39,956 nucleotides of DNA, taken from assembly GCA_012799975.1 (NCBI GenBank), contig JAAZKF010000342.1:1-39956 (forward strand). The letters run 5' to 3'. Below the pieces are notes generated by a model, which was given only the letters and a program-made list of their open reading frames with translations, was not told where the DNA came from and did no database searches. Origin of the DNA: Burkholderiales bacterium. GTDB taxonomy: Bacteria; Vulcanimicrobiota; Xenobia; Xenobiales; Xenobiaceae. A program made the translations under genes and the position numbers. Below are positions 7,370 to 36,953 of the stretch, piece by piece (position 1 is the stretch's first letter; each line of letters starts with the position of its first letter).

Positions 7370-7639
7370 CGGAATCTCCCCATATCTTCGACCTCTCCTG
7401 CCCCGAGTAAGGATCTGTTGCGGAATTCTATACCCGGGGGCGGAATCCCCCGTCGGGTAGGAATAGGAGGATTCCCGACTGCCTGGGGGAACTTTCTGCC
7501 CATTTCTGGGGTCCAACAATGTAGTTCGAGGGATCGGAAGGCCCGGGTCGTCCCCTTCCAGGATTCCCTACGCCTCGCAGGGGGAGGCCGGTGCATCCCG
7601 GTACCCACGCATCCGACGACCAGAGGAGAAGAAGATAAA

Positions 7640-9086: not shown

Positions 9087-9798
9087 GGGCGGGTTTCCTG
9101 CCGAGATGCAAGGTGACGATCCCGCCGTTCAGGGGTACGATACGGATATCCTCAAGACCGGCCTGGTGCATGATATCCGCCACCTCCTCCACCGATATAA
9201 ATTCGGCGATGGACCGGGCCAGATACCGATAGGCTCCTCCCTGCCCCGAGAAGAGCCTCCCGACCAGGGGAACGAGCCAGCGCAGGACCAGCCCATGCAG
9301 GCAGCCCAGAAGGCCCGAGGGGCGGGTCAACTCCAACGAGACCACCCGCCCCTCCGGACGGATGAGCCGGGCCATCTCGCGGAACAGGGCCTCGACATCC
9401 TCCACGTTGCGCAGGGCGAAGGCCACGCTGGCTCCATCGAAGGATTCCCCGGGCAGACCGGTGGCCAGGGCGTCGCCCTCCACGAAGCGGAGTTCCGGAT
9501 GGCGAAGGCGGGCCCGCTCCAGCATCTCGGGCACAAAGTCCACCCCCACCACGTTCTCGGGGCCGACCTGGTGCGCCAATACGGCGGTGAGATCCCCGGT
9601 GCCGCAGCACAGGTCCACCACCCGGGACCCCTGATGCAGGCCCAGATGAGCGGCTGCCCGTCGCCTCCAGGGCTGGTGCAACCCCAAGGAGAGCAGGCTG
9701 TTGAGCAGGTCATAACGGCCCGCGATCCGGGCAAATATCCCCCGGACCAGCGAGGCCTTCCCGCCTGAAGGCGGAATTTCCGGGCGGGGTCGGGTCAC
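9079..9798 (-). CDS. ubiE: Demethylmenaquinone / ubiquinone C-methyltransferase
   Basis: IFARIAGRYDLLNSLLSLGLHQPWRR is the UbiE/MenG signature. VVDLCCGTGDL is SAM motif I. It overlaps anmK by 8 nt and the mqnC/E stop by 4 nt. Confidence 0.9.
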   Translation of the reverse strand: MTRPRPEIPPSGGKASLVRGIFARIAGRYDLLNSLLSLGLHQPWRRRAAAHLGLHQGSRVVDLCCGTGDLTAVLAHQVGPENVVGVDFVPEMLERARLRHPELRFVEGDALATGLPGESFDGASVAFALRNVEDVEALFREMARLIRPEGRVVSLELTRPSGLLGCLHGLVLRWLVPLVGRLFSGQGGAYRYLARSIAEFISVEEVADIMHQAGLEDIRIVPLNGGIVTLHLGRKPAHG

Positions 9799-10874: not shown

Positions 10875-11653
10875 GCCGCCACCTCCCCCAGCAGGTCTTC
10901 GCCTCCGGCAGGCAGCAGCCCCAAGAGCCCGGCCCGGCGATAGAACTCGCGGAGCCCGGCCACGGAAGCGGCATCCAGGCGATGGTGCAGCCCCGCGAAA
11001 TAATCCTCCAGGCGGCGGCAGGACAGGCCCGTGCGCCGGGAAGCCTCCTGCACTACCTGCGAGGGATGGGCCTGCCCCCAGGCCCGGGAACGCTCCAACA
11101 GGTCCTGGCCCGCCGAAGCCAGTTCGGCACGGGTGGTCACCCACAGGGCGAAGACCATCGGCAGCCCCGTGGCCTGGCTCCACAAGACCCCCAAATCCGC
11201 CACATGCCGGGTCCCGGGCACCTCGCCCAGGGCCCGGTCACCGATCAGCAGGACGGCGGGAACCCGGTCGTCCAGAGAGGGTTCTCCGAGGAGTGGAACA
11301 GGCTGGATGCCGGGGAGCAGCACCTGGACCAGGATCCGGGAGGTTGCGCTGGCCGAGGTGATGGCCACCGGCTGGCCGGGCAATTCCTCCAGGGGGATCC
11401 GCGAGAAGAGCCGGACGCTCTGGACGGCCTCCCGAGCTCCCACGCAGAAGCCCGGAATGACCCGGTAGGTTCCCGGCGCAGCCGCCACCTCGGCCGCCGA
11501 GACTACGGTCAAATCCAACTGACCGGCCCGGGCCTGCTGATTCAACCAGGACGGCTCTCCGCGAAGGAGCTCGCCCGGAAAGGGGACAGCCCCACACTCC
11601 AGGCCCAGGGTCACCGGCAGGGCGTTTACCGACTTCAGGAGTCCCACGCGCAT
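10871..11653 (-). CDS. mqnA: Chorismate dehydratase MqnA (VitK2 biosynthesis PBP-like fold)
   Basis: Start set at ATG 11653 (MRVGLLKSVNALPVTLGL...). MqnA-like features are present: the N-terminal xxNxLP motif, LLIGDRAL and FALWV. The track extension to 11971 is unsupported. Confidence 0.8.
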   Translation of the reverse strand: MRVGLLKSVNALPVTLGLECGAVPFPGELLRGEPSWLNQQARAGQLDLTVVSAAEVAAAPGTYRVIPGFCVGAREAVQSVRLFSRIPLEELPGQPVAITSASATSRILVQVLLPGIQPVPLLGEPSLDDRVPAVLLIGDRALGEVPGTRHVADLGVLWSQATGLPMVFALWVTTRAELASAGQDLLERSRAWGQAHPSQVVQEASRRTGLSCRRLEDYFAGLHHRLDAASVAGLREFYRRAGLLGLLPAGGEDLLGEVAA

Positions 11654-12462
11654 CCGCGCACCTCCACGGGCTCTCGAGAGGCCTCGAGCACCCCGGCTCG
11701 AGCCTCGTGCCGGCCCACCGTACAGGAAGGTTTCAAGGCGCTTCCCCAGGCCCTCGCCTCCTCCAGGCCCCAGCCTGCCACCTCGTCGGCTCCACAGGTC
11801 AACAGGAACTGGGCCATCTTCCAGCCGAAGGCGGCCCAGGAAGCGCGGAGGCGCACCGTGGGAGGCAGGAAAAGACGGCTCACGGCCAGCAAACGGGCGT
11901 CCAGGAGCCCATCGGTAGCCTCGGCCCGATGCACCAACTCCCCCGGGGACTCGGGCAACCAGACCAGACATCTCAGGCTCCGCGCCGTGCGCAGCCGCTC
12001 CAGCCGAGCGGCCAGCTCAGCGGGGGTGCTGTTGGGACCGTAGGTGGCGCAGACCACCAGGGGCAAGGGCAGATCCAGTTGCTCAGACCAGGCCCCCTCA
12101 CCGGCGCTGACCGGCCCGCTGTCGACCGACAGGCTCTGGACCCCGGATCGGGCCAGGCTGCGGGTGGCAGCGGCGTCCAGGTCGGGGGGGGCTGCCGCGT
12201 GGACCCACAGGTTGGGATGCATCCCGACCCTTTCGCCAACCAGGGGCTCGGTACAGTCAAGCAGATGGAGCTCTCGGGGCTCCCCTTCCTCCGAGGCGGG
12301 GCGCCAGAGCCGCCTTGAATCCGCCAGCACGACGGCTCCATCCTCCCGATAGCCGGCGTGCTTCGAGAGCCGCTCCCTCCTCAGCCGACTTCCCAGGTCC
12401 AGGAGGGACCCGCACTGCAGGAAGGATTCGAGGTCGCGTAGGGGCGAGGGAAGGACACTCAC
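11635..12462 (-). CDS. MqnC/MqnE-like protein lacking the radical SAM CxxxCxxC motif
   Basis: The product aligns by eye with the neighbouring MqnC/E. LLDLGSRLRRERL matches LFRLGAAADRVRRRL. PLVVCATYGPNSTPAELAARLERLR matches TATMVFGFGETPQQRIEHLERLR. ARLLAVSRLFLPPTVRLRASW...TCGADEVAG matches LRLLAVARLYLDNFRHLHSGW...DFGADDLGS. Where NICVTGCSFCAF should sit it reads GAVVLADSRRLW. GTG start at 12462, with GAGG upstream. Confidence 0.55.
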   Translation of the reverse strand: MSVLPSPLRDLESFLQCGSLLDLGSRLRRERLSKHAGYREDGAVVLADSRRLWRPASEEGEPRELHLLDCTEPLVGERVGMHPNLWVHAAAPPDLDAAATRSLARSGVQSLSVDSGPVSAGEGAWSEQLDLPLPLVVCATYGPNSTPAELAARLERLRTARSLRCLVWLPESPGELVHRAEATDGLLDARLLAVSRLFLPPTVRLRASWAAFGWKMAQFLLTCGADEVAGWGLEEARAWGSALKPSCTVGRHEARAGVLEASREPVEVRGCAWDS

Positions 12463-12517
12463 CGGGCCTCGGTTCCAGTCCCTCCCAGCAAGTCCTGCCG
12501 CCCCCGAGCCCAGGGGA

Positions 12518-13396
12518 TCAGGTCAGGATCTCGAAAAGGCAGGCCACCAGCAAGGACAGGCTGATGGCGGCATTGCAGGTGAAGAAGGCCTGTTGCATCC
12601 GGGAAAGGTCTTCCGGGGAGAGCAGCGAGTGTTCCCACACCAGCAAGACCCCCACCAGGCCCAGCCCCAGGTTCCAGGCTCCTCCCAGGCCCAGGAGGGT
12701 GCCGACCAGAGCCAAGAGGACGAGCGTCAGAACGTGGCAGACCCGGGCTACCCGAAAGGCCCCGCGAGCCCCCAGCCGGACCGGCAACGAGTGCAGACCG
12801 ACGGCCCGGTCATGCTGAAGGTCCTGACAGGCATAAAGGATATCGAAGCCCCCCACCCAGAGCATGATGGCTCCGCCCAGCAGCCAGGCGGGCAACTCAA
12901 AGCGACCGGTAACCGCCAACCAACCCCCGATGGGAGCACAGGCCTGGACCAGCCCCAGCCCCAGATGACAGGCCCAGGTCAGACGCTTGAGGTAGGAGTA
13001 GACCAGCAGGAGGAGGACTGCCAGCGGAGAGAGGGCCAGGCATAGGGGATTGAGGAACCCGGCCGCCACTACCAGGGTCCCCAGGGAGAGTCCGGCCAGA
13101 AGCTGCACCGACCGGACCGAAACCCTCCCCGTCGGAAGATCCCGTTGGCACGTGCGCGGATTGCGGGCGTCGATCTCGCGGTCGATAAGCCGATTGAGGG
13201 CCATGCCGGCCGTGCGCGCGCCCACCATGGCCACGGTGACCCAGAAGGCCACCCGCCCCTCCGGCAAGCTGCCCCTGGCCAGAAGCATACCGACCCATGC
13301 GAAGGGCAGGGCGAAGACGGTCTGCTCCAGGCGGACCAGACTTACGAAGCGTCGCCAGGTCCGGAGCAGGCCGGCGAATATGCCCTCGTTCTTCAC
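12518..13396 (-). CDS. UbiA-family aromatic prenyltransferase (MqnP-like, by operon context)
   Basis: The UbiA motif NRLIDREIDARNPRT (NxxxDxxxD) is present, along with multiple TM helices and a second Asp-rich region (YACQDLQHD). It lies in the operon with mqn genes. Confidence 0.85.
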   Translation of the reverse strand: MKNEGIFAGLLRTWRRFVSLVRLEQTVFALPFAWVGMLLARGSLPEGRVAFWVTVAMVGARTAGMALNRLIDREIDARNPRTCQRDLPTGRVSVRSVQLLAGLSLGTLVVAAGFLNPLCLALSPLAVLLLLVYSYLKRLTWACHLGLGLVQACAPIGGWLAVTGRFELPAWLLGGAIMLWVGGFDILYACQDLQHDRAVGLHSLPVRLGARGAFRVARVCHVLTLVLLALVGTLLGLGGAWNLGLGLVGVLLVWEHSLLSPEDLSRMQQAFFTCNAAISLSLLVACLFEILT

Positions 13397-24052: not shown

Positions 24053-24186
24053 ACCGGTACCTCCGTCTCAATCCGACCCCCAGGCTTCCCTGTCGGCCGA
24101 GCAAGGGATACAATCCGACTCGATTCGCATCCCGGCGGATACGCAGTCGTTCCCGGGCGCTCCGGCTCCCTCATCGGCTTTCCCGG

Positions 24187-24999: not shown

Positions 25000-25528
25000 C
25001 CTCGGCACCTCGTCCTCCTGCCAGCGGGTCGGCACCCCGGCTTCGCCCATGTCTTTCGCTCCATCCACGGCCCGCCCTCCGACGGCCCCTCCCCTCCCCG
25101 TGCCCACACCCCCTTCCTCCTCCAAGGCTCAACCCGGTGCAGGTCGGGCAGGTTCCGGGCAATTCCCCGGGAGCCAGGAAGTGACTCTGGCCACAGGCCC
25201 GGCATGGCGGAGCGGGAGCGAGCCGGAAACTTCCCCCCTCGATGGCCAGGCTCCGCGCCTTGAGCAGGGCCTCAGTGACGACGCGTCGCCCTTGTTCCAG
25301 AAGACGACCCACGGTTTGACGGGAAACCCCCAGGTTCTGAGCCGCTTTTTCGTGACTGAGGCCTTCCAGGTCGACCAGGCGCATAGCTTCGAGTTCGTCG
25401 ATCTTCAGGACCAGATTCTCCAGATCCCGGGCCGGGACTCCGACCGGCTTGAAGAGGTTGGTACGGGGAAGGCAGGCGACCTGACGGGGACGGTGGGGAC
25501 GAGCCAAGACGGGGACCTCCTGCCACAT
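24983..25528 (-). CDS. DUF134 (UPF0251) putative DNA-binding protein with a C-terminal Cys4 ribbon and a Gly/Arg/His tail
   Basis: RPRQVACLPRTNLFKPVGVP...LKIDELEAMRLVDLEGLSHEKAAQNLGVSRQTVGRLLEQGRRVV is the DUF134 sigma-70-region-4-like HTH. It is followed by CRACG...CPTC and then GGGRGCGHGEGRGRRRAGRG. Confidence 0.75.
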   Translation of the reverse strand: MWQEVPVLARPHRPRQVACLPRTNLFKPVGVPARDLENLVLKIDELEAMRLVDLEGLSHEKAAQNLGVSRQTVGRLLEQGRRVVTEALLKARSLAIEGGSFRLAPAPPCRACGQSHFLAPGELPGTCPTCTGLSLGGGRGCGHGEGRGRRRAGRGWSERHGRSRGADPLAGGRGAEDGVDE

Positions 25529-25617
25529 GAGGGGATTGAACTTTCAGGAAGACTCGCAGAAAGACCAAGGCCCGACCCGACGGGCCGAGCCTTGGCCAGA
25601 GCCGGTTGGCCTGGACT

Positions 25618-25929
25618 TCACGACGGCGGAGGGGAGTCCTCCGCAGGTCTATTTGTCTTCATCTCGAGCAGGGTCTGGCGCATCTCGTGCAGACAACCCT
25701 CCAAATCATCCATCCGAGCGTGCAGGGCCTCAACCTCTGCGTCAGGAACCGGGCCCCTTCCCAGGGCCTCCCCCCCACCGGGGGCCGGAGGCGGGGGCGG
25801 AAGTCCCGGATTCCAGTTCCCCTGACCACGACCATGACCATGACGCCGGCGTCCTCTCCCCCGGCAAACACCACCCCCAAAGCCTTCAGGGCCGCGACCT
25901 CGAGGGCCTGTTCCATCACCTGCTGGCAT
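25618..25929 (-). CDS. DUF5320 family protein
   Basis: The N-terminal MPAGDGTGPRGRGP.G.GGG.C.GRG pattern and a C-terminal coiled coil (EVEALHARMDDLEGCLHEMRQTLLEMK) are as in DUF5320. AGGAGG RBS 5-6 nt upstream. Confidence 0.7.
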   Translation of the reverse strand: MPAGDGTGPRGRGPEGFGGGVCRGRGRRRHGHGRGQGNWNPGLPPPPPAPGGGEALGRGPVPDAEVEALHARMDDLEGCLHEMRQTLLEMKTNRPAEDSPPPS

Positions 25930-26286
25930 GCTGACCTCCTTGTTTTATCCTCGCCCGCCGGGATGCCATCATCCGATCAAACGGGCCGAATTATTAGCGT
26001 ATGCCCATAATACCCCTTCAAGAAACCTGCGTCAACCGAGATTTTGCGAAAGAGCAGCAGGTTTAGGGGCCCGCAACCTGAAACAACGCAGGTCGACTTC
26101 GGATGGGCTTCCCCACGATGGTGCCGCCGAGCGATTTCATCCCGATGACGCTGCCTCCCGGCCCTGTCCGATCCAGGAAAGATTCAGTGTCTTCCCGGAC
26201 AGCCGGGCTGCGGGGAAAGGGATCCCCGTGCCAACCCAGAACCTGCGCGGGCATCAAGCGACGGTTCCACCGTCAGGGAGATTTTC

Positions 26287-27261
26287 ATGACTCTTGATTG
26301 TGCTGTGACTTTTCCTGGCCAGGGTTCTCAGCGCCCCGGCATGGCCCTGGATTTTATCGAAGAAATCCCCGAATCGCGAGAAGTCTTCGCTGAAGCGAAC
26401 AGCGTGCTGCCCTTCAACGTGGAAGAGCTGTGCCGGCCAGCCGATCCGGGTTCTGAATATGGCGACCCGCGCCTGGAGCAGACCGAGTATGCCCAACCCT
26501 GCATCCTGACTGCGGAGATCGCCATGCTGAGGGGACTCCAGGCCCGCTTCGGCTTCCAACCCCGCTGGTTTGGAGGCCACAGCCTGGGTGAGTACACCGC
26601 GCTGGTGGCTGCCGGAGTCGTCCCCTTCAAGACGGCCGTCCGCCTGGTCCATGCCCGGGGGCAAGCGATGCAGAAGGCGGCTCCGCTGGGTTTCGGGGCC
26701 ATGACGGCCCTGATCCGGGAGGGCCTTCCCCTGGATGAGATCAAGGAGCTGGCCCGTCAGCTGGGAGTCGACCTGGCCAACGACAACTCGCCCAACCAGG
26801 CCGTGGTGAGCGGACCGCGCGAGGCCATCGAAGAACTCTCGGCCGAATTGGCCAGCCGCCACGAAGAGGACCTCCGAATCGTCCCCCTGGCTGTGAGCGC
26901 TCCCTTCCACTCGCGCTACATGGCCGAGGCCGAGGCCGATTTCAAGGAAGTCCTCCAAGAGGCTGGCCGGGAGTTCCGTCCGGAGCTCGCGGCATGCGTC
27001 ACCTCCAACTACACGGGCCGATTCCACACCGGAAAGCTGGAGGATCTGATCGAGTCGCTGACCCGCCAGGTGGCCTCTCCGGTCCGCTGGCGCGACAACA
27101 TGGCCGCCCTGGCCAGTGTGACCAGCAACCTCTTTGAGGTAGGCCCCGGCCGCCCCTTGGGTAATTTCTTCAAAGCCGCAGGCCTGAAGGTTCCCTCCAT
27201 CGTCGACCTGCGCTCGGCCCGTCGCGCACTGGAAGCATCTCCCGCGGTAGCCAAAGCCTGA
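26287..27261 (+). CDS. fabD: Malonyl-CoA:ACP transacylase-type acyltransferase
   Basis: FPGQGSQRPGM and the nucleophile motif GHSLGEYTALVAAG are present. 324 aa. Its stop overlaps the next start (TGATG). Confidence 0.88.
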   Translation: MTLDCAVTFPGQGSQRPGMALDFIEEIPESREVFAEANSVLPFNVEELCRPADPGSEYGDPRLEQTEYAQPCILTAEIAMLRGLQARFGFQPRWFGGHSLGEYTALVAAGVVPFKTAVRLVHARGQAMQKAAPLGFGAMTALIREGLPLDEIKELARQLGVDLANDNSPNQAVVSGPREAIEELSAELASRHEEDLRIVPLAVSAPFHSRYMAEAEADFKEVLQEAGREFRPELAACVTSNYTGRFHTGKLEDLIESLTRQVASPVRWRDNMAALASVTSNLFEVGPGRPLGNFFKAAGLKVPSIVDLRSARRALEASPAVAKA

Positions 27262-28196
27262 TGATTCGCTTCGACTCCAACCAATGGGCCGTGATCCTGG
27301 GTGGTTCTAGCGGCTTCGGCCTGGCCACGGCGCGCAAGATGGCTGCCCACGGCATGTCCGTGGCCGTCGTCCATCGGGACAGGCGCGGCGCCATGCCCAG
27401 GGTCGAGCCGGCCTTCGACGAGATCCGCAGCCACGGCCACGGGTTCCTGGCCCTGAACCTCGATGCCCTGGCCCCCGAGGGTCAGTCCAAGACCCTGGAA
27501 GCCCTGAAGGAGGCGATGGGTTCCCAGGGCCGGGTCCAGATGCTGTTGCACTCCATAGCCTTCGGGAACCTCAAGCCCCTGGTGGCCAGTCGCGCCCCGC
27601 GGCGGGGCGAGCAGGCCCTCCAGAGACTGGCGGAGGAGCTCGGAATCCCCTCGGACGAACTGCAGGGGACCCTGGAGCGCCTGGCTCAGGACGGAGAGGC
27701 TCCGCTGCAGACCTTGTTGCCCATTCCTGAAGGGCAGGCCCTCATGGAAGACGAGGATGTGGCCCGAACGATCTTCAGCATGGGCACCAGCCTGTTGACC
27801 TGGGTTCGCCTCTTCCACGAGAACGGTCTCTTCGCCGAGGATGCCCGCGTCTTCGGCCTGACCAGTGAGGGCAACCAGGTGGCCTGGCCAGGCTACTCCG
27901 CCGTGGCCGCCGCCAAGGTCGCCTTGGAATCGATCTCCCGAGCCATCGCCGTCGAGTTCGGTCCCTACGGAATCCGCTCGAATGTCCTGCAAGCGGGCGT
28001 TACCGACACCCCGGCCCTGCGCCTGATTCCCGGCAGCGCCCGCATGGTGGCCCATTCCTTGATGCGCAATCCCTTGGGACGCCTGACCACACCCATGGAT
28101 GTGGCCAACGTGATCTGCCTGATGTGCACGCCAGAAGCGGCCTGGGTCAACGGAACCGTGATCCGGGTCGACGGCGGGGAGAACGTCTCGGCATGA
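27261..28196 (+). CDS. SDR-superfamily oxidoreductase, enoyl-ACP-reductase-like (Y-x6-K), with an internal ~55 aa insertion
   Basis: Rossmann motif AVILGGSSGFGLATARKMA. Active-site region PGYSAVAAAKVALE has FabI-type Tyr-x6-Lys spacing rather than classical YxxxK. An extra helical segment (VASRAPRRGEQALQRLAEELGIPSDELQGTLERLAQDGEAPLQTLLPIPEGQ) is inserted after the beta4 region. Confidence 0.65.
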   Translation: MIRFDSNQWAVILGGSSGFGLATARKMAAHGMSVAVVHRDRRGAMPRVEPAFDEIRSHGHGFLALNLDALAPEGQSKTLEALKEAMGSQGRVQMLLHSIAFGNLKPLVASRAPRRGEQALQRLAEELGIPSDELQGTLERLAQDGEAPLQTLLPIPEGQALMEDEDVARTIFSMGTSLLTWVRLFHENGLFAEDARVFGLTSEGNQVAWPGYSAVAAAKVALESISRAIAVEFGPYGIRSNVLQAGVTDTPALRLIPGSARMVAHSLMRNPLGRLTTPMDVANVICLMCTPEAAWVNGTVIRVDGGENVSA

Positions 28197-29179
28197 TGCA
28201 CCTGCACGGAATGGGGCATTTTCACCCGCCCAACCGGTTAGACAACGACTTCCTGACCAGCCTGGACATCGGCACTGACGAGTCGTGGATCCTGGAACGC
28301 GTCGGGATCCGCTGCCGGCGCACGGTGCTTGACCTGGACTACATCGCCTCCACCCGCAACGCAGATCCCCGCCTGGCTGCTGCCGCCTCCACCCACAGCA
28401 ACGCCCAGACCGGCGCCTCTGCGGCCCGTATGGCCTTGGAACGGGCGGGTTTGGAACCCAAGGATATCGGGATGGTCTGGGCGGGAGGGTGCTCGCCCCA
28501 GCACACCATCCCCGCCGAAGCCAGCAAGATCGCCGCCGAACTCTGCATACAGGCTCCCGTCCTGGACATCGGCTCGGCCTGTTCGACCTTCGCGGCCCAG
28601 ATGCACCTGGCGGCGGGGATGCGCCCGGAAAGCCTTCCCGACTATCTACTGCTGATCAGCACCGAGAACAATACCCGGACGGTGGACTACCGCGACCGCG
28701 CCACCGCCGTGCTGTGGGGAGACGGCAGTTCAGCGGCCATCGTCTCACCCCGGGTCCCCTCCCGCATGCGCGTAGTCCATACCACCCTGGCCTCGGATCC
28801 CGCCGGTTGGGACAAGGTGACCATCCCCACGGGCGGACACTTCAGCCAGCATGGGCGAGCCGTCCAGGGATTCGCCATCCGCCGGACGGCCGAGACCCTT
28901 GAATCCCTCCGCAGCCGCTCGCGACGAACCCCTGAACACTTCCACTTCATCGGCCACCAGGCCAACCTGCTGATGCTGCAGAACGTCTGCGAGCGATGTG
29001 GAATCCCGCCGGAACGGCATCACTTCAACGTCGCTGAGTACGGTAACACCGGCGCAGCCGGAGCCCCCTGCGTCCTTTCCCAGAACTGGGAGCATTTCCA
29101 CGAGGGGGACGAGATCGCCCTGGTGGTGGTCGGTTCGGGGCTGACCTGGGGTGGAGTCCTGCTTGAGGTGCACGGGTGA
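28193..29179 (+). CDS. fabH: 3-oxoacyl-ACP synthase III (FabH-like)
   Basis: Start at ATG 28193 (ATGA overlap with the upstream stop). FabH N-terminus (GTDESWILERVGIRCRR). Cys-His-Asn triad contexts: GSACSTF, IGHQANLLML and EYGNTGAAGAP. Confidence 0.85.
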   Translation: MMHLHGMGHFHPPNRLDNDFLTSLDIGTDESWILERVGIRCRRTVLDLDYIASTRNADPRLAAAASTHSNAQTGASAARMALERAGLEPKDIGMVWAGGCSPQHTIPAEASKIAAELCIQAPVLDIGSACSTFAAQMHLAAGMRPESLPDYLLLISTENNTRTVDYRDRATAVLWGDGSSAAIVSPRVPSRMRVVHTTLASDPAGWDKVTIPTGGHFSQHGRAVQGFAIRRTAETLESLRSRSRRTPEHFHFIGHQANLLMLQNVCERCGIPPERHHFNVAEYGNTGAAGAPCVLSQNWEHFHEGDEIALVVVGSGLTWGGVLLEVHG

Positions 29180-29766
29180 AATACGCAGATTTCCTGAAAC
29201 GGACTGAATTTGACAAAGAAGAGCTGCTGGCCTTCGCTCGCGGCAACCTGGTGGAAGACCCGCCCTGTCCCGACTTCTCGGCCCTGCCTGCACCGCCGAT
29301 GCTGATGTTCGACCGGGTCATGGACATCCGGCGCGAAGGTCCCAAGGGTTTCCTGGCTGCCGAACAGGATGTCCGGGTGGACGAGTGGTTCTTCCACTGC
29401 CATTTCCGGAACGATCCGGTGCAGCCCGGTTGCCTCGGAGTCGACGCCATCTGGCAGATGATCGGTTTCTACGCCTGCCTGCGCGGAGGGCTGGGCGTGG
29501 GTCGGGCCCTGGGTTCCAAGGAGATCGAGTTCCGGGGGCAGATCCGTCCCCACGACCGCCTCGTCCGCTACGAGGTGGAAATCCGCCGCTACACCGAACT
29601 CCCTGCCAGCGGCTCGACGCTGGCCATCGGAACCGGAACCGTCTCGGTCGATGGAGAGTGCATCTACACAATCAAGGACGCCAAGGTCGGCCTCTTCCGC
29701 AACATCCAATACCCTGACTATCCGCATCGTTCAGAGAAATCACGAGGAGGTCTCCTGGTCCGTTGA
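29176..29766 (+). CDS. fabA: FabA-type 3-hydroxyacyl-ACP dehydratase/isomerase
   Basis: Aligns along its length with E. coli FabA from memory: LPAPPMLMFDRV, WFFHCHFRNDPVQPGCLGVDAIWQMIGFY, GRALG..EIEFRGQI and KVGLF. GTGA overlap with fabH. Confidence 0.88.
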   Translation: MKYADFLKRTEFDKEELLAFARGNLVEDPPCPDFSALPAPPMLMFDRVMDIRREGPKGFLAAEQDVRVDEWFFHCHFRNDPVQPGCLGVDAIWQMIGFYACLRGGLGVGRALGSKEIEFRGQIRPHDRLVRYEVEIRRYTELPASGSTLAIGTGTVSVDGECIYTIKDAKVGLFRNIQYPDYPHRSEKSRGGLLVR

Positions 29767-30482
29767 AAGTCGCACTAGTTACCGGTGGCGCCACCGGAAT
29801 CGGCGCGGCCTGCTGCCGAGCCCTGAGTCAGGCTGGCCTCGCGGTCGGAATCCACCACCGCACCAGCGCAGCGGCTGCCCAGGCATTACAGGAGGAATTG
29901 GGTGAGAACACCTTCCTGGTCAGCGCGGATCTTTCCACCACCGAAGGGGTCGACGCGGTCTACGAAGTCATGCGCCAGCGCGGTGGCCTGGAGGTCCTGG
30001 TCAACAACGCTGGAGCCACGGCGGACGCTCCCCTGTTCAGCGCGCGCCTGGAGGACTTCGACCGGGTCGTGGCCACCAACATGCGCAGCACCTGGTACCT
30101 CACCAAGCGCTTGGCCCGCTTGATGATGCGCCAGCGCTCGGGCCGGATCATCAACATCTCCAGCGTGGTCGGCAGCACCGGCAACCCGGGCCAGAGCGTC
30201 TACGGGATGACCAAGGCCGCCATCGACAACTTCACGCGGACGGCAGCCGCCGAACTGGCCGACTATGGAATACTGGTCAACGCTGTCGCTCCGGGATTCA
30301 TCGAGACCGCGATGACACAGGTCCTGCCCGAAGAGATCCGCGAGGGGATCCTGGCGAGGGTCCCCCTCAAGAGGATGGGGACCCCCCAGGAAGTGGCCGC
30401 CATGGTGCGCTTCCTGGCCCTGGAGGCCACCTACTGCACGGGGACGACCTTCCACGTGAACGGAGGGATGTACGGTGGCTGA
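29763..30482 (+). CDS. fabG: 3-oxoacyl-ACP reductase
   Basis: VTGGATGIG, NNAG and Ser...YGMTKAA (YxxxK) are classical SDR/FabG motifs. TTGA overlap with fabA. Confidence 0.9.
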   Translation: MKVALVTGGATGIGAACCRALSQAGLAVGIHHRTSAAAAQALQEELGENTFLVSADLSTTEGVDAVYEVMRQRGGLEVLVNNAGATADAPLFSARLEDFDRVVATNMRSTWYLTKRLARLMMRQRSGRIINISSVVGSTGNPGQSVYGMTKAAIDNFTRTAAAELADYGILVNAVAPGFIETAMTQVLPEEIREGILARVPLKRMGTPQEVAAMVRFLALEATYCTGTTFHVNGGMYGG

Positions 30483-30945
30483 CCCGAAAGCTGGCCTCAC
30501 ACCGGAGGAGGTGCTGGCCAGGGTACCTCAGCAGAGGCCCTTCCGCTTCGTGGACGAGATCCTTGAATTGGACTCGGAGAAGATCACGGGACGCTACACC
30601 TTCCGCCCGGACGAGAGCTTCTATGAGGGGCATTTTCCTGGCCGCCCCGTCACTCCGGGTGTCATCCTGTTGGAGTGCATGTGCCAGGTGGGCGTGGTGG
30701 CTTTGGGGATCTACCTGCTCTCGCGGGAGGTCGAACCCGAAGAGATCCCCCACTGGACGACCATGTTCGCCGACGCCACGGTCGAATTCTGCCGTCCCGT
30801 CCTGCCGGGCGAGCGGGTGACCATCCGGGGAACCCGGGAAATCTGGCGGCGCCGCAAACTGCGCTCGCGGATCGAAATGTACAACGAGGAAGGAGTGCTC
30901 GTGGCCAGCGCAACCGCGTCGGGCATGGGCGTGCGCCATGAATAG
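30475..30945 (+). CDS. fabZ: FabZ-like hot-dog 3-hydroxyacyl-ACP dehydratase
   Basis: PQQRPFRFVDEILEL...FYEGHFPGRPVTPGVILLECMCQ carries the FabZ catalytic His (GHFP) and Glu contexts. GTG start, 8 nt overlap with fabG. Confidence 0.8.
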   Translation: MADPKAGLTPEEVLARVPQQRPFRFVDEILELDSEKITGRYTFRPDESFYEGHFPGRPVTPGVILLECMCQVGVVALGIYLLSREVEPEEIPHWTTMFADATVEFCRPVLPGERVTIRGTREIWRRRKLRSRIEMYNEEGVLVASATASGMGVRHE

Positions 30946-32206
30946 GGTCGTCATTACCGGCATGGGGATCATCGCCCCCAATGCCCACGGTCTGGAAGAT
31001 TTCGAGCAGGCCTTGCGCCAGGGCCGATCCGGGCTGCGGCACCTGCCCCATCTGGTTGATCTCAACTTCACCTGCCAGGTCGCAGGGGTCCCCCAGGGGT
31101 ATGAGGAGTTGGCCCGGGAGTACTTCACCCCCGACAGGCTGGTGGCCATGAATTCCGGGATGATCTTCGCGGGAATCGCCGGGATCGACTGCTGGCGCGA
31201 CGCGGGGCTGCCGCTACCGGACCCCATCGAAGGGCCGGTCGACTGGCAGACGGGGGCCGTCATCGGCACCGGGGTCGGGGGCGTGGACACCCTGGGCGAC
31301 GTGGTCATCCCCCGGGTCAAGGAGGGCAAGGTACGCCGCATCGGCAGCACCTCGGTCGAGCAGACCATGGCCAGCGCCGTCAGCGGATGCCTGGGAGGCC
31401 TGCTGGCCATGGGCGGCCAGGTGACCACCAACTCCAGCGCCTGCACCACGGGCACCGAAGCCATCATCCAGGCCTTCTGGCACCTCCAGGCGGGCCGGGC
31501 CCGGCGGATGATGGCCGGGGGTGTGGAAGGAGCCTCAGAGTACATCTGGGCTGGATTCGACGCCATGCGCGTTCTGGCTCGAGGCTTCAATGAACGTCCG
31601 GAAGAAGCCTCACGCCCCATGAGTGCTTCCGCCAGCGGTTTCGTCCCGGGTTCGGGAGCCGGTCTCCTGATGCTGGAAACGCTGGAGTCCGCCCGGGAAA
31701 GAGGCGCCCGGATCTACGCCGAGGTCATGGGAGGTCACGTCAACTGTGGTGGCCAGCGCAATGGAGGCAGCACCACCGCCCCCAACCCCGAAGGTGTGAG
31801 GCGCTGCATCCAAGGCGCCCTGGCTTCAGCGGGCCTGACCCCCGATGACATCGACCTCATCAACGGTCATCTGACGGCCACCATGGCTGACCCCCTGGAG
31901 GTCCAGAACTGGGCTGCCGTGCTGCAACGCGACCCCCAGGACTTCCCCTGGATCAACTCGACCAAGTCGCTAATCGGTCACGGCCTGGGCGCCGCCGGAG
32001 GCATGGAATGCGTGGCCTCGGTGCTGCAGTTGTCGCGAGGTTTCGTACACGGTTCTGCGAACTGCCAGGATCTGCACCCGACCCTCGAGCCCTACAGCGC
32101 ACGAATTCCCCACCAGACTCGCAAAACGGACGCCCGGATACTGGCCAAGGCCAGCTTCGGATTCGGTGATGTGAACGGATGCGTCCTGTTCCGCAAGTGG
32201 GAATGA
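30938..32206 (+). CDS. 3-oxoacyl-ACP synthase I/II (KAS, Cys-His-His type)
   Basis: RVVITGMGIIAP, active-site Cys in NSSACTTGTEAI, and His contexts NGHLTATMADPLE and STKSLIGHGLGAAG. 422 aa, 8 nt overlap with the upstream gene. The segment GGHVNCGGQRNGGSTTAPNPEG differs from housekeeping FabF and FabB. Confidence 0.88.
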   Translation: MNRVVITGMGIIAPNAHGLEDFEQALRQGRSGLRHLPHLVDLNFTCQVAGVPQGYEELAREYFTPDRLVAMNSGMIFAGIAGIDCWRDAGLPLPDPIEGPVDWQTGAVIGTGVGGVDTLGDVVIPRVKEGKVRRIGSTSVEQTMASAVSGCLGGLLAMGGQVTTNSSACTTGTEAIIQAFWHLQAGRARRMMAGGVEGASEYIWAGFDAMRVLARGFNERPEEASRPMSASASGFVPGSGAGLLMLETLESARERGARIYAEVMGGHVNCGGQRNGGSTTAPNPEGVRRCIQGALASAGLTPDDIDLINGHLTATMADPLEVQNWAAVLQRDPQDFPWINSTKSLIGHGLGAAGGMECVASVLQLSRGFVHGSANCQDLHPTLEPYSARIPHQTRKTDARILAKASFGFGDVNGCVLFRKWE

Positions 32207-32226
32207 ACCTCAGAGGAGAACAAGAC

Positions 32227-32472
32227 ATGGATCAGCAGACCGCCTTGGAAAAAGTCACTGCCATCATCAAACCCTACGCCAAGAACCTGGCCCCCCTCGA
32301 GGAGGGGAACCTGGAAGCCCGGATCCTGGAAGACCTGGGCGTGAACTCCGCACGCCTGGTGGACATCATCCTGGCTTTCGAGGATGAGTTCGGCATCTCG
32401 ATCGACGACGATACCGCAGACAAGGTCCGCACGATCAACGACGCCGTACAGGTCATCTTGAGCCAGGCTTGA
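32227..32472 (+). CDS. Acyl carrier protein, divergent (81 aa)
   Basis: ATG 32227, with AGAGGAGAA upstream. Four-helix ACP pattern. The phosphopantetheine Ser lies in LEDLGVNSARLVDI rather than the near-invariant housekeeping DLGADSLD. Confidence 0.78.
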   Translation: MDQQTALEKVTAIIKPYAKNLAPLEEGNLEARILEDLGVNSARLVDIILAFEDEFGISIDDDTADKVRTINDAVQVILSQA

Positions 32473-33242
32473 CCCCCATTCCCCCTGCCCTGGGCCATCG
32501 CGACCGGCTGGGACTCTTCCTGCAGCGGGCGATGGCCTGGGCCTTCACTCCGGTCAGTTACTACCTGACCTGGTTCTGGATGCGCTTCGTGCGCGGCTAC
32601 CGCATTTCCGGCATGCGGGCCTTCCGCGACGAGATAAGGCGGAAACTGGGGCCGCATAGGACTCCCCTGCTGGTCTGCCCCAACCACCTGACGGCCATCG
32701 ACTCGCTGGTCCTGATCTGGGCTCTCGGTTCAGGCCTTCACTACCTCCAGAAAGACCGGGACTTCGCCTGGAACCTGCCCGAGCGCCGCAACCTGGGAGA
32801 AGGCCTGCTCCTGCTCGTGGCCTGCTACCTGTGCAAGTGCATTCCGGTCCTGCGCCAGGGTCCTCCCGAGGTGACGGCACGAACCATGTCCAAGATCCGA
32901 CACCTCCTGGCCGGGGGGCACCGGGTGATGATCTTCCCCGAGGGGACGCGCAGCCGGAGCGGGCGGGTCGACACCCGGGACTTCGCCTACGGAACGGGCC
33001 GCCTGGTCCAGGAAGTCCCGGGAACACGGGTCCTGTGTGTCTACCTCCGGGGCCTGGGCCAGGAGGTCTGCAGCTACCTCCCCCGCCGCGGAGAGACCTT
33101 CCACCTGTGCTTCGACGTCCTGGAACCCACCTCACCCAACAAGGGTCTGCGCGGATCGCGGGATATCTCGCGCCTCATCGTCGAGCGCCTGGCTTCCCTG
33201 GAAGAGGAATGGTTTGCCAACCACCGCCCGACTGGGCAATGA
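32469..33242 (+). CDS. PlsC/LPLAT-family acyltransferase
   Basis: Acyltransferase motif I CPNHLTAIDS (HxxxxD) and motif III IFPEGTRSRSG are present. Hydrophobic N-terminus. TTGA overlap with the ACP stop. Confidence 0.83.
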   Translation: MTPIPPALGHRDRLGLFLQRAMAWAFTPVSYYLTWFWMRFVRGYRISGMRAFRDEIRRKLGPHRTPLLVCPNHLTAIDSLVLIWALGSGLHYLQKDRDFAWNLPERRNLGEGLLLLVACYLCKCIPVLRQGPPEVTARTMSKIRHLLAGGHRVMIFPEGTRSRSGRVDTRDFAYGTGRLVQEVPGTRVLCVYLRGLGQEVCSYLPRRGETFHLCFDVLEPTSPNKGLRGSRDISRLIVERLASLEEEWFANHRPTGQ

Positions 33243-33840
33243 CCTGGTCGACCTGACCACCCCCCACACGGCGGGCAAAGCCCGGGACCTGCGCTTCCTG
33301 AGGCGTGTCTTCACTGCGGCTGAGCAGGATCGGATCGCCTCTTCCCCGGACCCCGACCGGGTCCTGTGGAAGCTTTGGAGTGCCAAGGAAGCCGCCTACA
33401 AGGCCTGGTCCCGATACCTTCCGGATCTGGTCTTCGCCCATTCGCGATTCGAGGTGGACCCTGAGGACGGCTCGGTCAGGCTTCCCCAGGGCCTATGTCG
33501 GGTCCACTGGTGCGAGCAGGAGGAATGGATCCACTGCCTGGCCTGGACCGGATTCCCGGAGGGGCTTTCCTGGAAGGTGGAGGGTCTGCCCAAGGGAGTC
33601 CCCGAGAACGGCCCAGAGGCCATCACAATCCCCTCCCTGCAGGCACGAGACCTGGCCGCGAGGCTTCTGGCCGGGATCGGCCTGCCAGGAGCCCGGCTGC
33701 ACCGGGAAGACCGGAGACCACCGGTGGTTCTTCTCGAAGGGCGGCTCCTGGAAGGGTTCCTGGTGTCCTGGTCCCACGACGGAAACCGGGTAGCTGCAGC
33801 CGTAGCCCGGACCGGGAGAGGCCAAGAAATCCCCCTATGA
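33214..33840 (+). CDS. 4'-phosphopantetheinyl transferase superfamily protein
   Basis: LGNDLVDL (the GxDxxxx motif) and LWSAKEAAYKA (the W-x-x-KEA-x-x-K motif) are present. Start tentatively at TTG 33214, with GGAAGAGGAA upstream. This gives a 29 nt overlap with the acyltransferase gene. Confidence 0.72.
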   Translation: MPTTARLGNDLVDLTTPHTAGKARDLRFLRRVFTAAEQDRIASSPDPDRVLWKLWSAKEAAYKAWSRYLPDLVFAHSRFEVDPEDGSVRLPQGLCRVHWCEQEEWIHCLAWTGFPEGLSWKVEGLPKGVPENGPEAITIPSLQARDLAARLLAGIGLPGARLHREDRRPPVVLLEGRLLEGFLVSWSHDGNRVAAAVARTGRGQEIPL

Positions 33841-35492
33841 ACGCGGACCGATTGCATGACCCTGCCGCCGTTCGCAAGGCCCGGGGTGCCTTCTTTACCC
33901 CACCTGAGCTCTGCGCCTTTGTGGCTCGTTGGGCGATCCGGAGCTCAGCGGACCGTGTGCTCGAACCTTCGTGCGGGGAGGCGGCCTTTCTGTTGGCTTG
34001 CGGAGAATGCCTCCGGGCCTTCGGGTCTGGTGCCCCGGACGAGCGGCAACTTACAGGAATCGAACTGCACCAGGAGTCTGCTGATCGCGCCCGGGCACGT
34101 CTGGCCGAGAACCTGCTGCCGGCAACCGTGACGGTCGCGAACTTCTTCGACTGCGAAGCCTCCGGGAGGCCCTATGATGTGGTCACCGGCAACCCGCCCT
34201 ACGTCCGCTACCAATGGTTCAGGGGAGAGGACCGCAGAAAGGCCCGGGAGGCGGCCCTTGTCCAAGGGGTGCGGGTCAGCGGTCTGGCCAGTTCCTGGGC
34301 CGCCTTCGTGGTGCAGGCAACCAGCTTCCTCGCTCCGGAAGGCCGGATGGGCCTCGTACTGCCGGCAGAGCTCCTGACGGTCAACTACGCGGCTCCCATT
34401 CGAGAGTTCCTGCTCAGGAGGTTCTCGCAAGTCCGACTGATTCTTTTCGAGAAACTCGTCTTCCCGGGCGTGCTCGAGGAAGTCGTCCTTCTTCTGGCCG
34501 AGGGCCAGGGCCCCACCGCTCACTTCGAACTCTGTCAGGTTCAGGGGCTCGAGGATCTGCTGCAGATGCGCATTGTCCCGAGCAGGTGGGCCCCGGAGAC
34601 TCCTTCCGAGAAGTGGACCGGAGCCCTGATTTCAAGAGAAGCTGCTGACCGCTGCCGTTCCGCGCTGGACCAAGGCATCTTTCAGCCACTGCTGGATTGG
34701 GGTGAGACCTATCTCGGCATGGTGACGGGCAACAACAGGTATTTCACGCTGTCAGCCGCCGAAGCCAAGTCGCTCAAACTGCCGAGCAAGGACCTGATTC
34801 CCATCTCACCACCGGGCTCGCGACATCTCAGGGGCCTCAGCTTCTCCCGCGTCGCCTGGGAGGAGATGGTTGAGGGTGATTTTCGCGTCTTCCTCTTCCG
34901 CCCTGAATCCGGGGAACCGAAAGGGGCGGCCGCAGCCTATATCCGGAAAGGTGAGAAGGAGAAGGTCCACTCCGCCTACAAGTGCCGGGTCCGCAGCCCG
35001 TGGTGGCGGGTTCCCGTCGTCCCTACGCCGCATCTCTTCCTCACCTACATGAACCACGACACGCCGAGGTTGGTTGGTAATCCCGACGGTTTCTGGTTCC
35101 TGAACTCGATCCACGGGGTAGGGCTCCACCCGGACCGGGTGGAAATCGGGTCTGAGGTGCTACCGGTCGCTGCCCTGAACAGCCTCACCCTCCTGGCAGC
35201 GGAGCTCGTCGGCCGTTCATATGGTGGCGGCATGCTCAAAATCGAGCCCAAGGAGGCCGACCAGCTCTCAGTTCCTTCAGCCGCCCTCCTGCAAGCGTCG
35301 CGGGAGGACCTTCTCGACTTGCGCCCACAACTTTCTGAAGCGCTTCGAGGCGGGGATCTGCCAGGCGCAGTCCAACTGGTAGACCGGGTCCTGCTTCTCC
35401 AGCATGCTGGATTCCAAGAGCGCGATTTGACGGCTCTCCAGAAGGCTCGCGAGCATCTTTTTTCACGTCGGGCAGCACGAGGCGATGGTTGA
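33837..35492 (+). CDS. Gamma-class N6-adenine DNA methyltransferase (Eco57I/TaqI-like) with a C-terminal target-recognition domain
   Basis: Start at ATG 33837 (ATGA overlap with the PPTase stop). FFTPPELCAFV, SAM motif I VLEPSCGEAAF, and catalytic motif IV VVTGNPPYVRYQ are present. The C-terminal half (LGMVTGNNRYF...SPWWRV...LNSIHGV...GRSYGGGMLKIEPKEADQLSVP) resembles the TaqI-like specificity domain. No nuclease domain or partner ORF is visible. Confidence 0.82.
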   Translation: MNADRLHDPAAVRKARGAFFTPPELCAFVARWAIRSSADRVLEPSCGEAAFLLACGECLRAFGSGAPDERQLTGIELHQESADRARARLAENLLPATVTVANFFDCEASGRPYDVVTGNPPYVRYQWFRGEDRRKAREAALVQGVRVSGLASSWAAFVVQATSFLAPEGRMGLVLPAELLTVNYAAPIREFLLRRFSQVRLILFEKLVFPGVLEEVVLLLAEGQGPTAHFELCQVQGLEDLLQMRIVPSRWAPETPSEKWTGALISREAADRCRSALDQGIFQPLLDWGETYLGMVTGNNRYFTLSAAEAKSLKLPSKDLIPISPPGSRHLRGLSFSRVAWEEMVEGDFRVFLFRPESGEPKGAAAAYIRKGEKEKVHSAYKCRVRSPWWRVPVVPTPHLFLTYMNHDTPRLVGNPDGFWFLNSIHGVGLHPDRVEIGSEVLPVAALNSLTLLAAELVGRSYGGGMLKIEPKEADQLSVPSAALLQASREDLLDLRPQLSEALRGGDLPGAVQLVDRVLLLQHAGFQERDLTALQKAREHLFSRRAARGDG

Positions 35493-35858: not shown

Positions 35859-36953
35859 ATGAGCGTGGAGACCCCGACCGGCAAACCCCTGGAACTCTCT
35901 GATCTGCTGGTGACCATGGTCCAGAGGGAGGCCTCCGACCTCCATCTGGGAGTTGGTTTCGCCCCATCGATCCGGGTGGACGGAAAGCTCTCTGCCCTGG
36001 AAGGGTACGCCCCCCTCAATCAGAAGGCCTTGGAGGAGCTGCTCCATCCCCACCTCCTCCCCGAACAGCACGAGACCCTGAAGACGACCCGCGAGCTGGA
36101 CTTCTCCTACTCGCTCCCCGGCGTCTCGAGGTTCCGGGGCAATCTCCTGTGGCAACGCGGCACGCTGGGCGCGGTCTTCCGGAGTATCCCCACCCAACCG
36201 TTGAGCATCGACGAACTGGGACTGCCCCCGATCATCAAGATACTGGCGACCCGCCCCCGGGGATTGGTTCTGGTGACCGGCCCTACCGGAAGCGGCAAGT
36301 CGACTACGCTGGCCGCGATGATCGACTACATCAACAACAGATCCTCCTACCACGTAGTCACCATCGAGGACCCCATCGAGTTCCTGCATCGCAACAAGAA
36401 ATGCATCATCCGCCAGCGGGAACTGGGTTCGGACACCAGGTCCTTTGCTGCGGCCCTCAAACACGTCCTGCGCCAGGATCCCGACGTGATCCTGGTCGGC
36501 GAGATGCGCGACCTGGAGACCATCTCCCTGGCCGTCACGGCGGCGGAGACCGGTCACCTGGTGCTGGCGACCCTGCACACCACCTCGGCCACCAGCACGG
36601 TGGACCGCATCATCGACGTGTTTCCGGCGGCCCAGCAACAGCAGATCCGGATGCAGTTGTCGGCCACGCTCCAAGGCGTGGTGGCCCAGGTGCTCATACC
36701 CCGGGTCGGGGGACGTGGACGAGAGTGTGCGATGGAGGTCCTGGTGGGCAGCGGCGCGGTCCGCAACATGATCCGCGAGGGCAAGACGCACCTGTTGAAC
36801 AACCTGCTGGCTTCAGGCGGCAACGTTGGTATGCAGACCCTCAATCAGTCCCTCAAGGTCCTGGTCGAGAAGGGCCTGGTCGGACTGCCCGAGGCGCTGG
36901 AGAAATCAAACGACACCGCCGAGCTCCAAAGCCTGGTCCAGAACCGATACTAG
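35859..36953 (+). CDS. pilT: Type IV pilus retraction ATPase PilT
   Basis: Walker A GPTGSGKST, Walker B ILVGEMRD, His box LVLATLHT, and the PilT signature AVRNMIREGK are present. 364 aa. Confidence 0.92.
   Translation: MSVETPTGKPLELSDLLVTMVQREASDLHLGVGFAPSIRVDGKLSALEGYAPLNQKALEELLHPHLLPEQHETLKTTRELDFSYSLPGVSRFRGNLLWQRGTLGAVFRSIPTQPLSIDELGLPPIIKILATRPRGLVLVTGPTGSGKSTTLAAMIDYINNRSSYHVVTIEDPIEFLHRNKKCIIRQRELGSDTRSFAAALKHVLRQDPDVILVGEMRDLETISLAVTAAETGHLVLATLHTTSATSTVDRIIDVFPAAQQQQIRMQLSATLQGVVAQVLIPRVGGRGRECAMEVLVGSGAVRNMIREGKTHLLNNLLASGGNVGMQTLNQSLKVLVEKGLVGLPEALEKSNDTAELQSLVQNRY

Follow-up and report, generated by a model that had tools for sequence, protein, structure and literature searches.

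A ten-gene type II fatty-acid synthase operon in a UBP9-class Eremiobacterota bacterium is an unusually complete member of a horizontally mobile family

Bacteria use accessory type II fatty-acid synthases, each with a private carrier protein, to make special lipids, among them mycolates, the very-long-chain acids of lipid A and aryl polyenes. Here, we analyze a 39,956-nt stretch of contig JAAZKF010000342.1 (the window; forward strand, with all window coordinates referring to the whole stretch), in which positions 26287-33840 hold one polycistronic type II fatty-acid synthase (FAS) operon of ten genes in 7.5 kb. The host is a UBP9-class bacterium of the Eremiobacterota (WPS-2). UBP9 is the basal, apparently obligately anaerobic class of Candidatus Eremiobacterota/WPS-2 (PMC6664022).

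Results

Eleven open reading frames (ORFs) lie on the + strand between 26287 and 35492 (Table 1). They encode, in order, FabD, an enoyl-ACP reductase (ER), FabH, FabA, FabG, FabZ, a beta-ketoacyl-ACP synthase (KAS), an acyl carrier protein (ACP), an acyltransferase (AT), a 4'-phosphopantetheinyl transferase (PPTase) and a DNA methyltransferase. Nine of the ten junctions among them are overlaps: TGATG with a 1-nt overlap at 27261 (FabD/ER), ATGA at 28193-28196 (ER/FabH), GTGA at 29176-29179 (FabH/FabA), TTGA at 29763-29766 (FabA/FabG), 8 nt at 30475 (FabG/FabZ), 8 nt at 30938 (FabZ/KAS), TTGA at 32469 (ACP/AT), 29 nt at 33214 (AT/PPTase) and ATGA at 33837 (PPTase/methyltransferase). An intergenic gap is left only between KAS and ACP. 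Independent gene calls on the source contig, JGI 3300064082 Ga0591956_0000377 (140,810 bp), recover all eleven products at identical lengths. A leader of approximately 350 nt (25935-26286) precedes fabD. No Rfam family was matched anywhere in the window, so there is no riboswitch in this leader, and a promoter and terminator scan inside the operon gave nothing above chance expectation. Just before the leader, a Pro/Gly/Ser-rich ORF that is a 253-aa hypothetical gene in the sister locus L003 is split over two frames in the window (25181-25931) and is therefore probably not a real gene.

Table 1 Coordinates of the cassette genes, the adjoining methyltransferase gene and related features on other contigs or loci (locus named where the feature lies outside the window)
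Feature	Length	Position	Strand	Families, models and motifs
FabD-like malonyl-CoA:ACP transacylase	324 aa	26287..27261	+	PF00698; TIGR00128 fabD 228 bits vs cut-off 261
FabI/FabL-like enoyl-ACP reductase (ER) with ~60-aa insertion	311 aa	27261..28196	+	adh_short_C2 in two pieces
FabH-like KAS III	328 aa	28193..29179	+	PF08545 and PF08541; PRK09352 195 bits vs cut-off 249
FabA-type 3-hydroxyacyl-ACP dehydratase/isomerase	196 aa	29176..29766	+	PF07977; PRK05174 207 bits, above cut-off 124
FabG-type 3-oxoacyl-ACP reductase	239 aa	29763..30482	+	TIGR01830 254 bits vs cut-off 298
FabZ/ApeI-like dehydratase	156 aa	30475..30945	+	PF07977; FabZ PRK00006 67 bits vs cut-off 113; PF22818 ApeI-like
Elongating beta-ketoacyl-ACP synthase (KAS), KAS I/II type	422 aa	30938..32206	+	PF00109 and PF02801; fabF 281 bits vs 494
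KAS/ACP intergenic gap	20 nt	32207..32226	+	acctcagaggagaacaagac; GGAG ribosome-binding site, directly 5' of ATG 32227
Acyl carrier protein (ACP), pI 4.1	81 aa	32227..32472	+	PF00550; every NCBIfam ACP model below cut-off (54 vs 71)
GPAT/LPLAT-superfamily acyltransferase (AT)	257 aa	32469..33242	+	PF01553; NHLTAID (HX4D) and FPEGTRS
4'-Phosphopantetheinyl transferase (PPTase)	208 aa	33214..33840	+	PF01648; GNDLVD and WSAKEAAYK
Type II N6-adenine DNA methyltransferase, Eco57I family	551 aa	33837..35492	+	PF02384, PF07669, PF22837
Second PF01553 acyltransferase, same contig ~6 kb left of the window start, ~6 kb upstream of gpsA	257 aa	L026 3861-4634	-	PF01553
Single-chain carboxylase		L012 12455-18487		
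Single-chain carboxylase		L015 12910-18510		
Single-chain carboxylase		L016 13016-18607		
Single-chain carboxylase		L017 13049-18652		
Single-chain carboxylase		L021 2671-8400		
Single-chain carboxylase		L024 11322-16493		

Families were assigned with Pfam and NCBIfam, and the NCBIfam equivalog cut-offs were taken as the reference for housekeeping status. Catalytic motifs are intact in all ten cassette proteins. FabD has GHSLGE97, the Arg of HARGQ122 and the His of APFHS205. The ER combines a FabI-like HSIAFG97 motif with Y212-x6-K, with an insertion of approximately 60 residues between the two; its top NCBIfam match is FabL, next to a weak FabV-type Enoyl_reductase match, it has no close relative in the PDB search, and it is 50-61% identical to the ER of cassettes from other phyla. 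The FabH triad (Cys130, His255, Asn285) is complete and the top PDB match is Aquifex FabH (120 bits). FabA shares 49% identity with its E. coli counterpart and keeps the catalytic His and Asp (FFHCHF, GVDA), FabG carries TGGATGIG, NNAG, the Ser and Y147-x3-K and shares 51-58% identity with FabG from cassettes L010, L011, L016 and L017, and FabZ has His53 and Glu68. The KAS retains its Cys-His-His triad, is 57-68% identical to cassette KAS from other phyla and finds P. aeruginosa FabB (7PPS, 38% identity) as its top PDB match. For the ACP, the phosphopantetheine site is Ser41 and identity to T. thermophilus ACP is 44%, while the PPTase has no sequence relative in the PDB search. Only FabA reaches its equivalog cut-off; fabD, fabH, fabG, fabZ, fabF and the ACP all miss theirs.

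The sharpest marker of the family is found in the ACP, in which the window has LGVNSARLVDI and the housekeeping counterpart is DSLDxVEL. The motif (V/I)NSA(R/N)LVD is invariant in 26 of the 26 cassette ACPs examined, including those of variants that carry a type III polyketide synthase (PKS). An earlier note on this DNA, made from its letters alone, had listed the eleven ORFs with their ten junctions, assigned functions to the ten lipid genes and described a type II FAS-like cassette that is self-contained through an ACP, a PPTase and a PlsC-type acyltransferase of its own, some components of which it called atypical. The ORFs and junctions match as listed, the functions are confirmed by the Pfam and NCBIfam assignments and the intact motifs, and the self-contained operon is supported. 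By their scores, FabD, FabH, FabG, FabZ and FabF are atypical, and the deviant motif of the ACP, which the note had singled out, proves to be a signature shared by the whole cassette family.

The AT has the acyltransferase domain of acyl-ACP:phospholipid O-acyltransferase (Aas) as its top NCBIfam match and belongs to a small, discrete family, with 349 representatives at E<=1e-3 and 83 at E<=1e-30 among 1.84 billion. An AlphaFold2 model (pLDDT 95) was matched by Foldseek to GPAT1, to 7zkq chain T (which we take to be tafazzin) and to PatA, all of them distant (TM 0.43-0.52). The predicted fold thus agrees with the superfamily assignment and, with PDB neighbors this distant, does not reveal the acceptor. 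The second PF01553 acyltransferase of the same contig, near gpsA, is 27% identical to the cassette AT and scores 55 bits against its 28 with the PlsC domain model. It is a candidate housekeeping PlsC, and as such would be a weak pointer to an accessory role of the cassette.

At its 3' end the operon is followed by a full-length DNA methyltransferase gene, with N6_Mtase, Eco57I and M_Eco57I_C domains, an NPPY motif and a PADLOC MTase_II match of 524 bits, and no restriction-enzyme partner was recognized next to it. The G+C content at third codon positions (GC3) is 0.72, the lowest in the series, compared with 0.75-0.85 for the ten cassette genes. The gene is found at this position in two independent assemblies (L028, L029) and is absent there from the sister genomes L003, L004, L007 and L023, as well as from the cassette loci of all other phyla examined. 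Nucleotide homology of the window to these four sister UBP9 genomes (87-89% for L003, L004 and L007, 80% for L023) stops at 33813-33832 (earlier in L023), which are the final codons of the PPTase gene, the final gene common to the window and its sisters. Next in the sister genomes comes a hairpin terminator and then tRNA-Ala(CGC) or its remnant. The tRNA is present at 12041-12116 in L007, an integrase/terminase-bearing element lies between PPTase and tRNA in L004 (13013-20324), and a tRNA remnant and the gene of a 1,767-aa SNF2 helicase follow the PPTase in L003 (~12900-13000). To judge from these arrangements, the site 3' of the cassette is a tRNA-Ala integration hotspot in sister UBP9 genomes. 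The window has neither a tRNA nor a tRNA remnant; the tRNA has been lost altogether there.

In L023 the same ten genes stand inside a wholly different flank, so the cassette is a discrete unit. Together with the homology break at the end of the PPTase gene and the low GC3 of the methyltransferase, this sets the cassette at ten genes (26287-33840), not the eleven-gene unit of the earlier note, and ORF 11 is a strain-specific DNA methyltransferase. The ATGA overlap and the recurrence of the arrangement in two independent assemblies would also fit a single eleven-gene lipid unit, in which the methyltransferase methylates the lipid product. We consider this extremely improbable, given the complete set of DNA methyltransferase domains, the absence of the gene from all sister cassettes and every other phylum, the break at a point where relatives have a terminator and tRNA-Ala, and a GC3 below that of the cassette genes. 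A functional link between cassette and methyltransferase was rejected for the same reasons, and the overlap is most simply read as a by-product of insertion at a variable site.

To follow the cassette across genomes, synteny was derived from tblastn of all cassette proteins against fetched loci, together with precomputed gene tables. A colinear core of ER-FabH-(FabA or FabG)-FabZ-KAS-ACP-AT-PPTase, with per-gene identities to the window of 40-68%, keeps its order in Spirochaeta africana, Cytophagia, Deltaproteobacteria/Smithella/Syntrophaceae, Myxococcota, Coxiellaceae/Berkiella (uncultured Coxiellaceae and Berkiella loci L013 and L014) and Spirochaetales. KAS relatives that are 65-72% identical occur in very distant lineages, among them S. 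africana, Vicinamibacterales and Armatimonadetes, and a search with a Coxiellaceae KAS adds Calditrichaeota, KSB1, Latescibacterota, Omnitrophica, Handelsmanbacteria and Bacteroidetes; Coxiella burnetii is not among the 120 matches listed for that query. Within UBP9, at least five genomes share the cassette at 80-92% nucleotide identity. Plasmid carriage was sought in PLSDB, in which tblastn gave no match at E<=1e-60. Horizontal transfer has clearly carried the cassette into more than a dozen phyla of bacteria.

Gene content varies around this core. Most cassettes outside UBP9 have no FabD and no FabG, so none of these can serve its host as the only FAS, and each must coexist with another. Among the fetched loci, FabD is present only in the UBP9 cassettes and in that of an uncultured Smithella (L010), and FabD, FabA and FabG occur together, among the complete cassettes fetched, in UBP9 only; the partial locus L011 has FabA and FabG. 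FabG takes the place of FabA in L010, L016 and L017, and L010 has an acyl-CoA-dehydrogenase-family flavoprotein at the ER position (6618-7817). In Myxococcota, one Spirochaetales metagenome-assembled genome (MAG) and one more genome (L024), the PPTase gene is directly followed on its 3' side by a single-chain carboxylase of 1,720-1,910 aa with the domain order BC-BCCP-ACC_central-CT, which is eukaryote/LCC-like and suggests a private supply of malonyl- or alkylmalonyl-CoA. In Bacteroidota and Halioglobus (L018, L019, L020 and L022; for example, L020 5738-11989), ER-FabZ-KAS-ACP-PPTase comes after an FAD-monooxygenase, a methyltransferase and a type III PKS, with FabH and AT missing, a KAS of approximately 50% identity and the ACP signature NSANLVD. 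By its gene content, this variant is an srs-like cluster of phenolic-lipid genes that has a mini-FAS of its own. The elongation module thus appears to be reused with different loading and off-loading partners.

The core has a published counterpart. In C. burnetii, CBU_0034-0038 (ACP, FabB, FabZ, FabA, FabH) are described as a second FAS gained en bloc by horizontal transfer, with a deltaproteobacterium or a spirochaete as donor (PMC5423948), in the same arrangement as in S. africana DSM 8902, its best match (Moses et al. 2017, PMC5423948). C. burnetii also holds a vertically inherited FAS, CBU_0493-0497 (PMC5423948; bioRxiv 10.64898/2026.05.14.724635). Transposon insertions in CBU_0035 and CBU_0038 weaken growth in Vero cells (PMC5423948), and unsaturated fatty-acid synthesis by the operon has been predicted from homology only (PMC5423948; bioRxiv 10.64898/2026.05.14.724635). 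The S. africana operon (L001, CP003282.1) is colinear with the window, with identities of 61% for ER, 62% for FabH, 65% for FabA, 62% for FabZ, 68% for KAS, 56% for ACP and 46% for AT. The published order FabH-FabA-FabZ-KAS(FabB)-ACP corresponds to FabH-FabA-[FabG]-FabZ-KAS-ACP in the window and, as in the window, the five-gene core of S. africana is preceded by the ER and followed by AT and PPTase, whereas UBP9 has two further genes, a FabD at the 5' end and a FabG placed between FabA and FabZ. The Coxiella papers name the five genes only and do not discuss the ER, the AT, the PPTase or the ACP signature (PMC5423948). Our literature search for a named system found nothing relevant beyond these papers. 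The window cassette is therefore an unusually complete example of a known, biochemically uncharacterized, horizontally mobile family, and the view of the earlier note, that no described system could be named with this exact content, is not supported for the FabH-FabA-FabZ-KAS-ACP core.

Compared with E. coli-type FAS II, every enzymatic step is present with its catalytic residues, and FabA is paired with a KAS I/II enzyme as in the anaerobic unsaturated pathway. The differences are that the window genes form one 7.5-kb operon with a PPTase and an acyltransferase, that the ACP has NSARLVD and not DSLDxVEL, that the ER has its insertion of approximately 60 aa, that there is no plsX/rpmF context and that all equivalog scores save that of FabA fall short. 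Mycobacterial FAS-II is similar in its working, being a dissociated second FAS with its own ACP, FabD, KAS and Y-x6-K ER, and in having a FabH that could link the window FAS to another synthase. The window ACP, however, is not extended at its C terminus, only one KAS is encoded and the operon has its own acyltransferase; membership was rejected on the AcpM model (32 bits vs 146) and the KasA/B model (174 vs 560).

Aryl polyene (APE)/flexirubin clusters share with the cassette an ACP, a KAS, a FabG-like ketoreductase, ApeI/ApeP-like dehydratase domains and an LPLAT-type acyltransferase. The window differs in its ER and FabH, its one ketosynthase without a CLF partner and its one ACP, and membership was rejected since AMP-ligase, thioesterase, LolA/MMPL, glycosyltransferase and methyltransferase genes of such clusters were not found in the cassette or in the window from 22 to 40 kb. 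Pfa and Ole membership was rejected likewise, their hallmarks being absent in the domain scans of cassette and window, which bears out the earlier note on all three systems. The rhizobial acpXL-lpxXL cluster has LpxXL, of the lipid A acyltransferase family, two FabF paralogues and a Zn-alcohol dehydrogenase. The cassette was not assigned to it, given its PF01553 (GPAT/LPLAT) acyltransferase, its single KAS and the lack of an alcohol dehydrogenase. With srs/ars-type phenolic-lipid clusters, the link runs through the Bacteroidota/Halioglobus relatives described above, which share ER-FabZ-KAS-ACP-PPTase, the KAS at approximately 50% and the ACP signature. The window itself has FabH, FabA, FabG, FabD and a PlsC-superfamily acyltransferase in contrast to them, and was rejected as a type III PKS phenolic-lipid cluster because it contains no type III PKS and none of the tailoring enzymes.

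The remainder of the window, which is located at one end of the 140.8-kb source contig, is ordinary chromosome, with gpsA, tyrS, futalosine-type menaquinone genes, ubiA, ubiE and genes for transketolase, transaldolase, enolase, a PilT-like ATPase, alkaline phosphatase and a class I tRNA synthetase. No other fab genes were found in the approximately 50 kb of the source contig that were read (the window and approximately 10 kb to its left), a span that is uninformative for the whole genome. The futalosine-route menaquinone set (9079-13396, - strand) comprises a UbiE-type methyltransferase, a radical-SAM CofH/MqnC-like enzyme and a UbiA prenyltransferase, with a VitK2_biosynth gene according to the source-contig calls, and occurs in a lineage described as being without respiration genes. 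An ARMT1-like (PF01937) gene, which in sister genomes lies between DUF4405 and DUF364 genes (L003 2277-3157), is absent in the window, where approximately 22 codons are left at 24076-24100. Directly 3' of the methyltransferase is a stand-alone PilT/T2SSE-family ATPase gene (35859-36953, + strand), around which no further genes for pili or secretion lie and which gives weak PADLOC matches to mads_8 and mads_3 components.

Discussion

We favor the reading that the cassette is a horizontally mobile, insulated second ('plug-in') type II FAS working on its own carrier protein, and consider this probable. The steps below are taken from intact catalytic motifs and family homology. The PPTase would convert the cassette ACP to its holo form at Ser41, within a helix-II motif, NSARLVD, that is unlike the DSLDxVEL surface recognized by housekeeping enzymes and that may thereby keep the pathway apart from the housekeeping FAS. 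FabD would load malonate, FabH would prime and the KAS I/II enzyme would elongate, each cycle being completed by FabG, FabZ/FabA and the FabI-like reductase. The FabA/KAS pair could divert the cis-3 intermediate to cis-monounsaturated chains without oxygen, and the GPAT/LPLAT-type acyltransferase would esterify the finished acyl-ACP to a lyso-glycerolipid or another hydroxyl acceptor of that kind. The product would then be chains of ordinary length, either saturated or cis-unsaturated, the latter as predicted for C. burnetii. The accessory role had already been proposed in the earlier note and is largely supported, with cross-phylum synteny and the coexistence of the C. burnetii operon with a vertically inherited FAS both in its favor (PMC5423948).

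Several points weigh against a second, insulated synthase of this kind. With FabD, FabG and FabA together, the UBP9 cassette could in principle stand alone. The exchange of FabA for FabG in L010, L016 and L017 means that unsaturated-chain synthesis is not a universal function of the family, and the structural matches of the AT are too distant to indicate the acceptor. Orthology of the window and C. burnetii operons is judged through the published S. africana comparison, and the literature searched holds no biochemical or lipidomic characterization of any cassette member.

The first of these points leads to the alternative that the cassette is the sole, housekeeping FAS of the UBP9 bacterium, an acquired FabA/FabB-type FAS II that displaced the ancestral one and in which the AT acts as PlsC. 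Every elongation enzyme is indeed encoded, in addition to ACP, PPTase and acyltransferase, and the conservation in at least five UBP9 genomes at 80-92% nucleotide identity, the position among the housekeeping genes eno, tkt, tal and gpsA and the lack of another fab gene in approximately 50 kb of the source contig would all be expected of a housekeeping locus. We nevertheless regard this as quite unlikely. Orthologous cassettes elsewhere do without FabD and FabG, and the C. burnetii operon coexists with a vertically inherited FAS. The ACP does not have the DSLD surface that is normally read by AcpS, LpxA/D, PlsX and LipB, the proteins score below the equivalog cut-offs without plsX or rpmF linkage, a second PlsC-like gene lies near gpsA and the cassette has a different flank in L023. 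Alternatively, by analogy with the hand-over from mycobacterial FabH to FAS-II, the cassette could build a specialized chain, for example a very-long-chain acyl group from housekeeping primers or a precursor of a secondary lipid, which the AT would attach to a dedicated acceptor. This agrees with the coupling of ER-FabZ-KAS-ACP-PPTase to a type III PKS in Bacteroidota and Halioglobus, an srs/ars-like setting that needs a long acyl starter, with the single-chain BC-BCCP-CT carboxylase of approximately 1,900 aa in some cassettes, with an acyltransferase family that is small and far from canonical PlsC, and with FabH and AT, which always co-occur in the fetched loci. However, the enzymes are precisely those of a FAS for ordinary saturated/cis-unsaturated chains, neither in the UBP9 cassette nor beside it are there tailoring enzymes, a thioesterase, a ligase or an exporter, and nothing in the sequences fixes the chain length, so that we consider a specialized chain unlikely for the window.

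Beyond the second, plug-in FAS that we prefer, a bolder view of the family can be put forward tentatively, although we doubt it more than we believe it. The family may be an orthogonal mobile FAS, defined by the NSA(R/N)LVD carrier and its private PPTase, that supplies hosts in at least 13 phylum-level lineages with a chain that the housekeeping FAS cannot provide or that must be kept apart from it. It would act as a combinatorial module, joined to FabH and AT or to a type III PKS and sometimes to its own carboxylase, and its product would be a distinct, undescribed lipid class and not simply the cis-unsaturated fatty acids assumed for Coxiella.

The cassette family is widespread, mobile and affects the intracellular growth of C. 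burnetii (PMC5423948), yet it is annotated by homology only. The UBP9 copy is the most complete of the complete cassettes found and, as it needs only malonyl-CoA and NAD(P)H, offers a convenient expression construct. If the NSARLVD carrier is truly insulated, it would be of interest for engineering orthogonal fatty-acid pathways, and a product different from ordinary unsaturated fatty acids would make the family more noteworthy. If UBP9 has no other FAS, the cassette would instead illustrate the replacement of an ancestral synthase by one gained through horizontal transfer.

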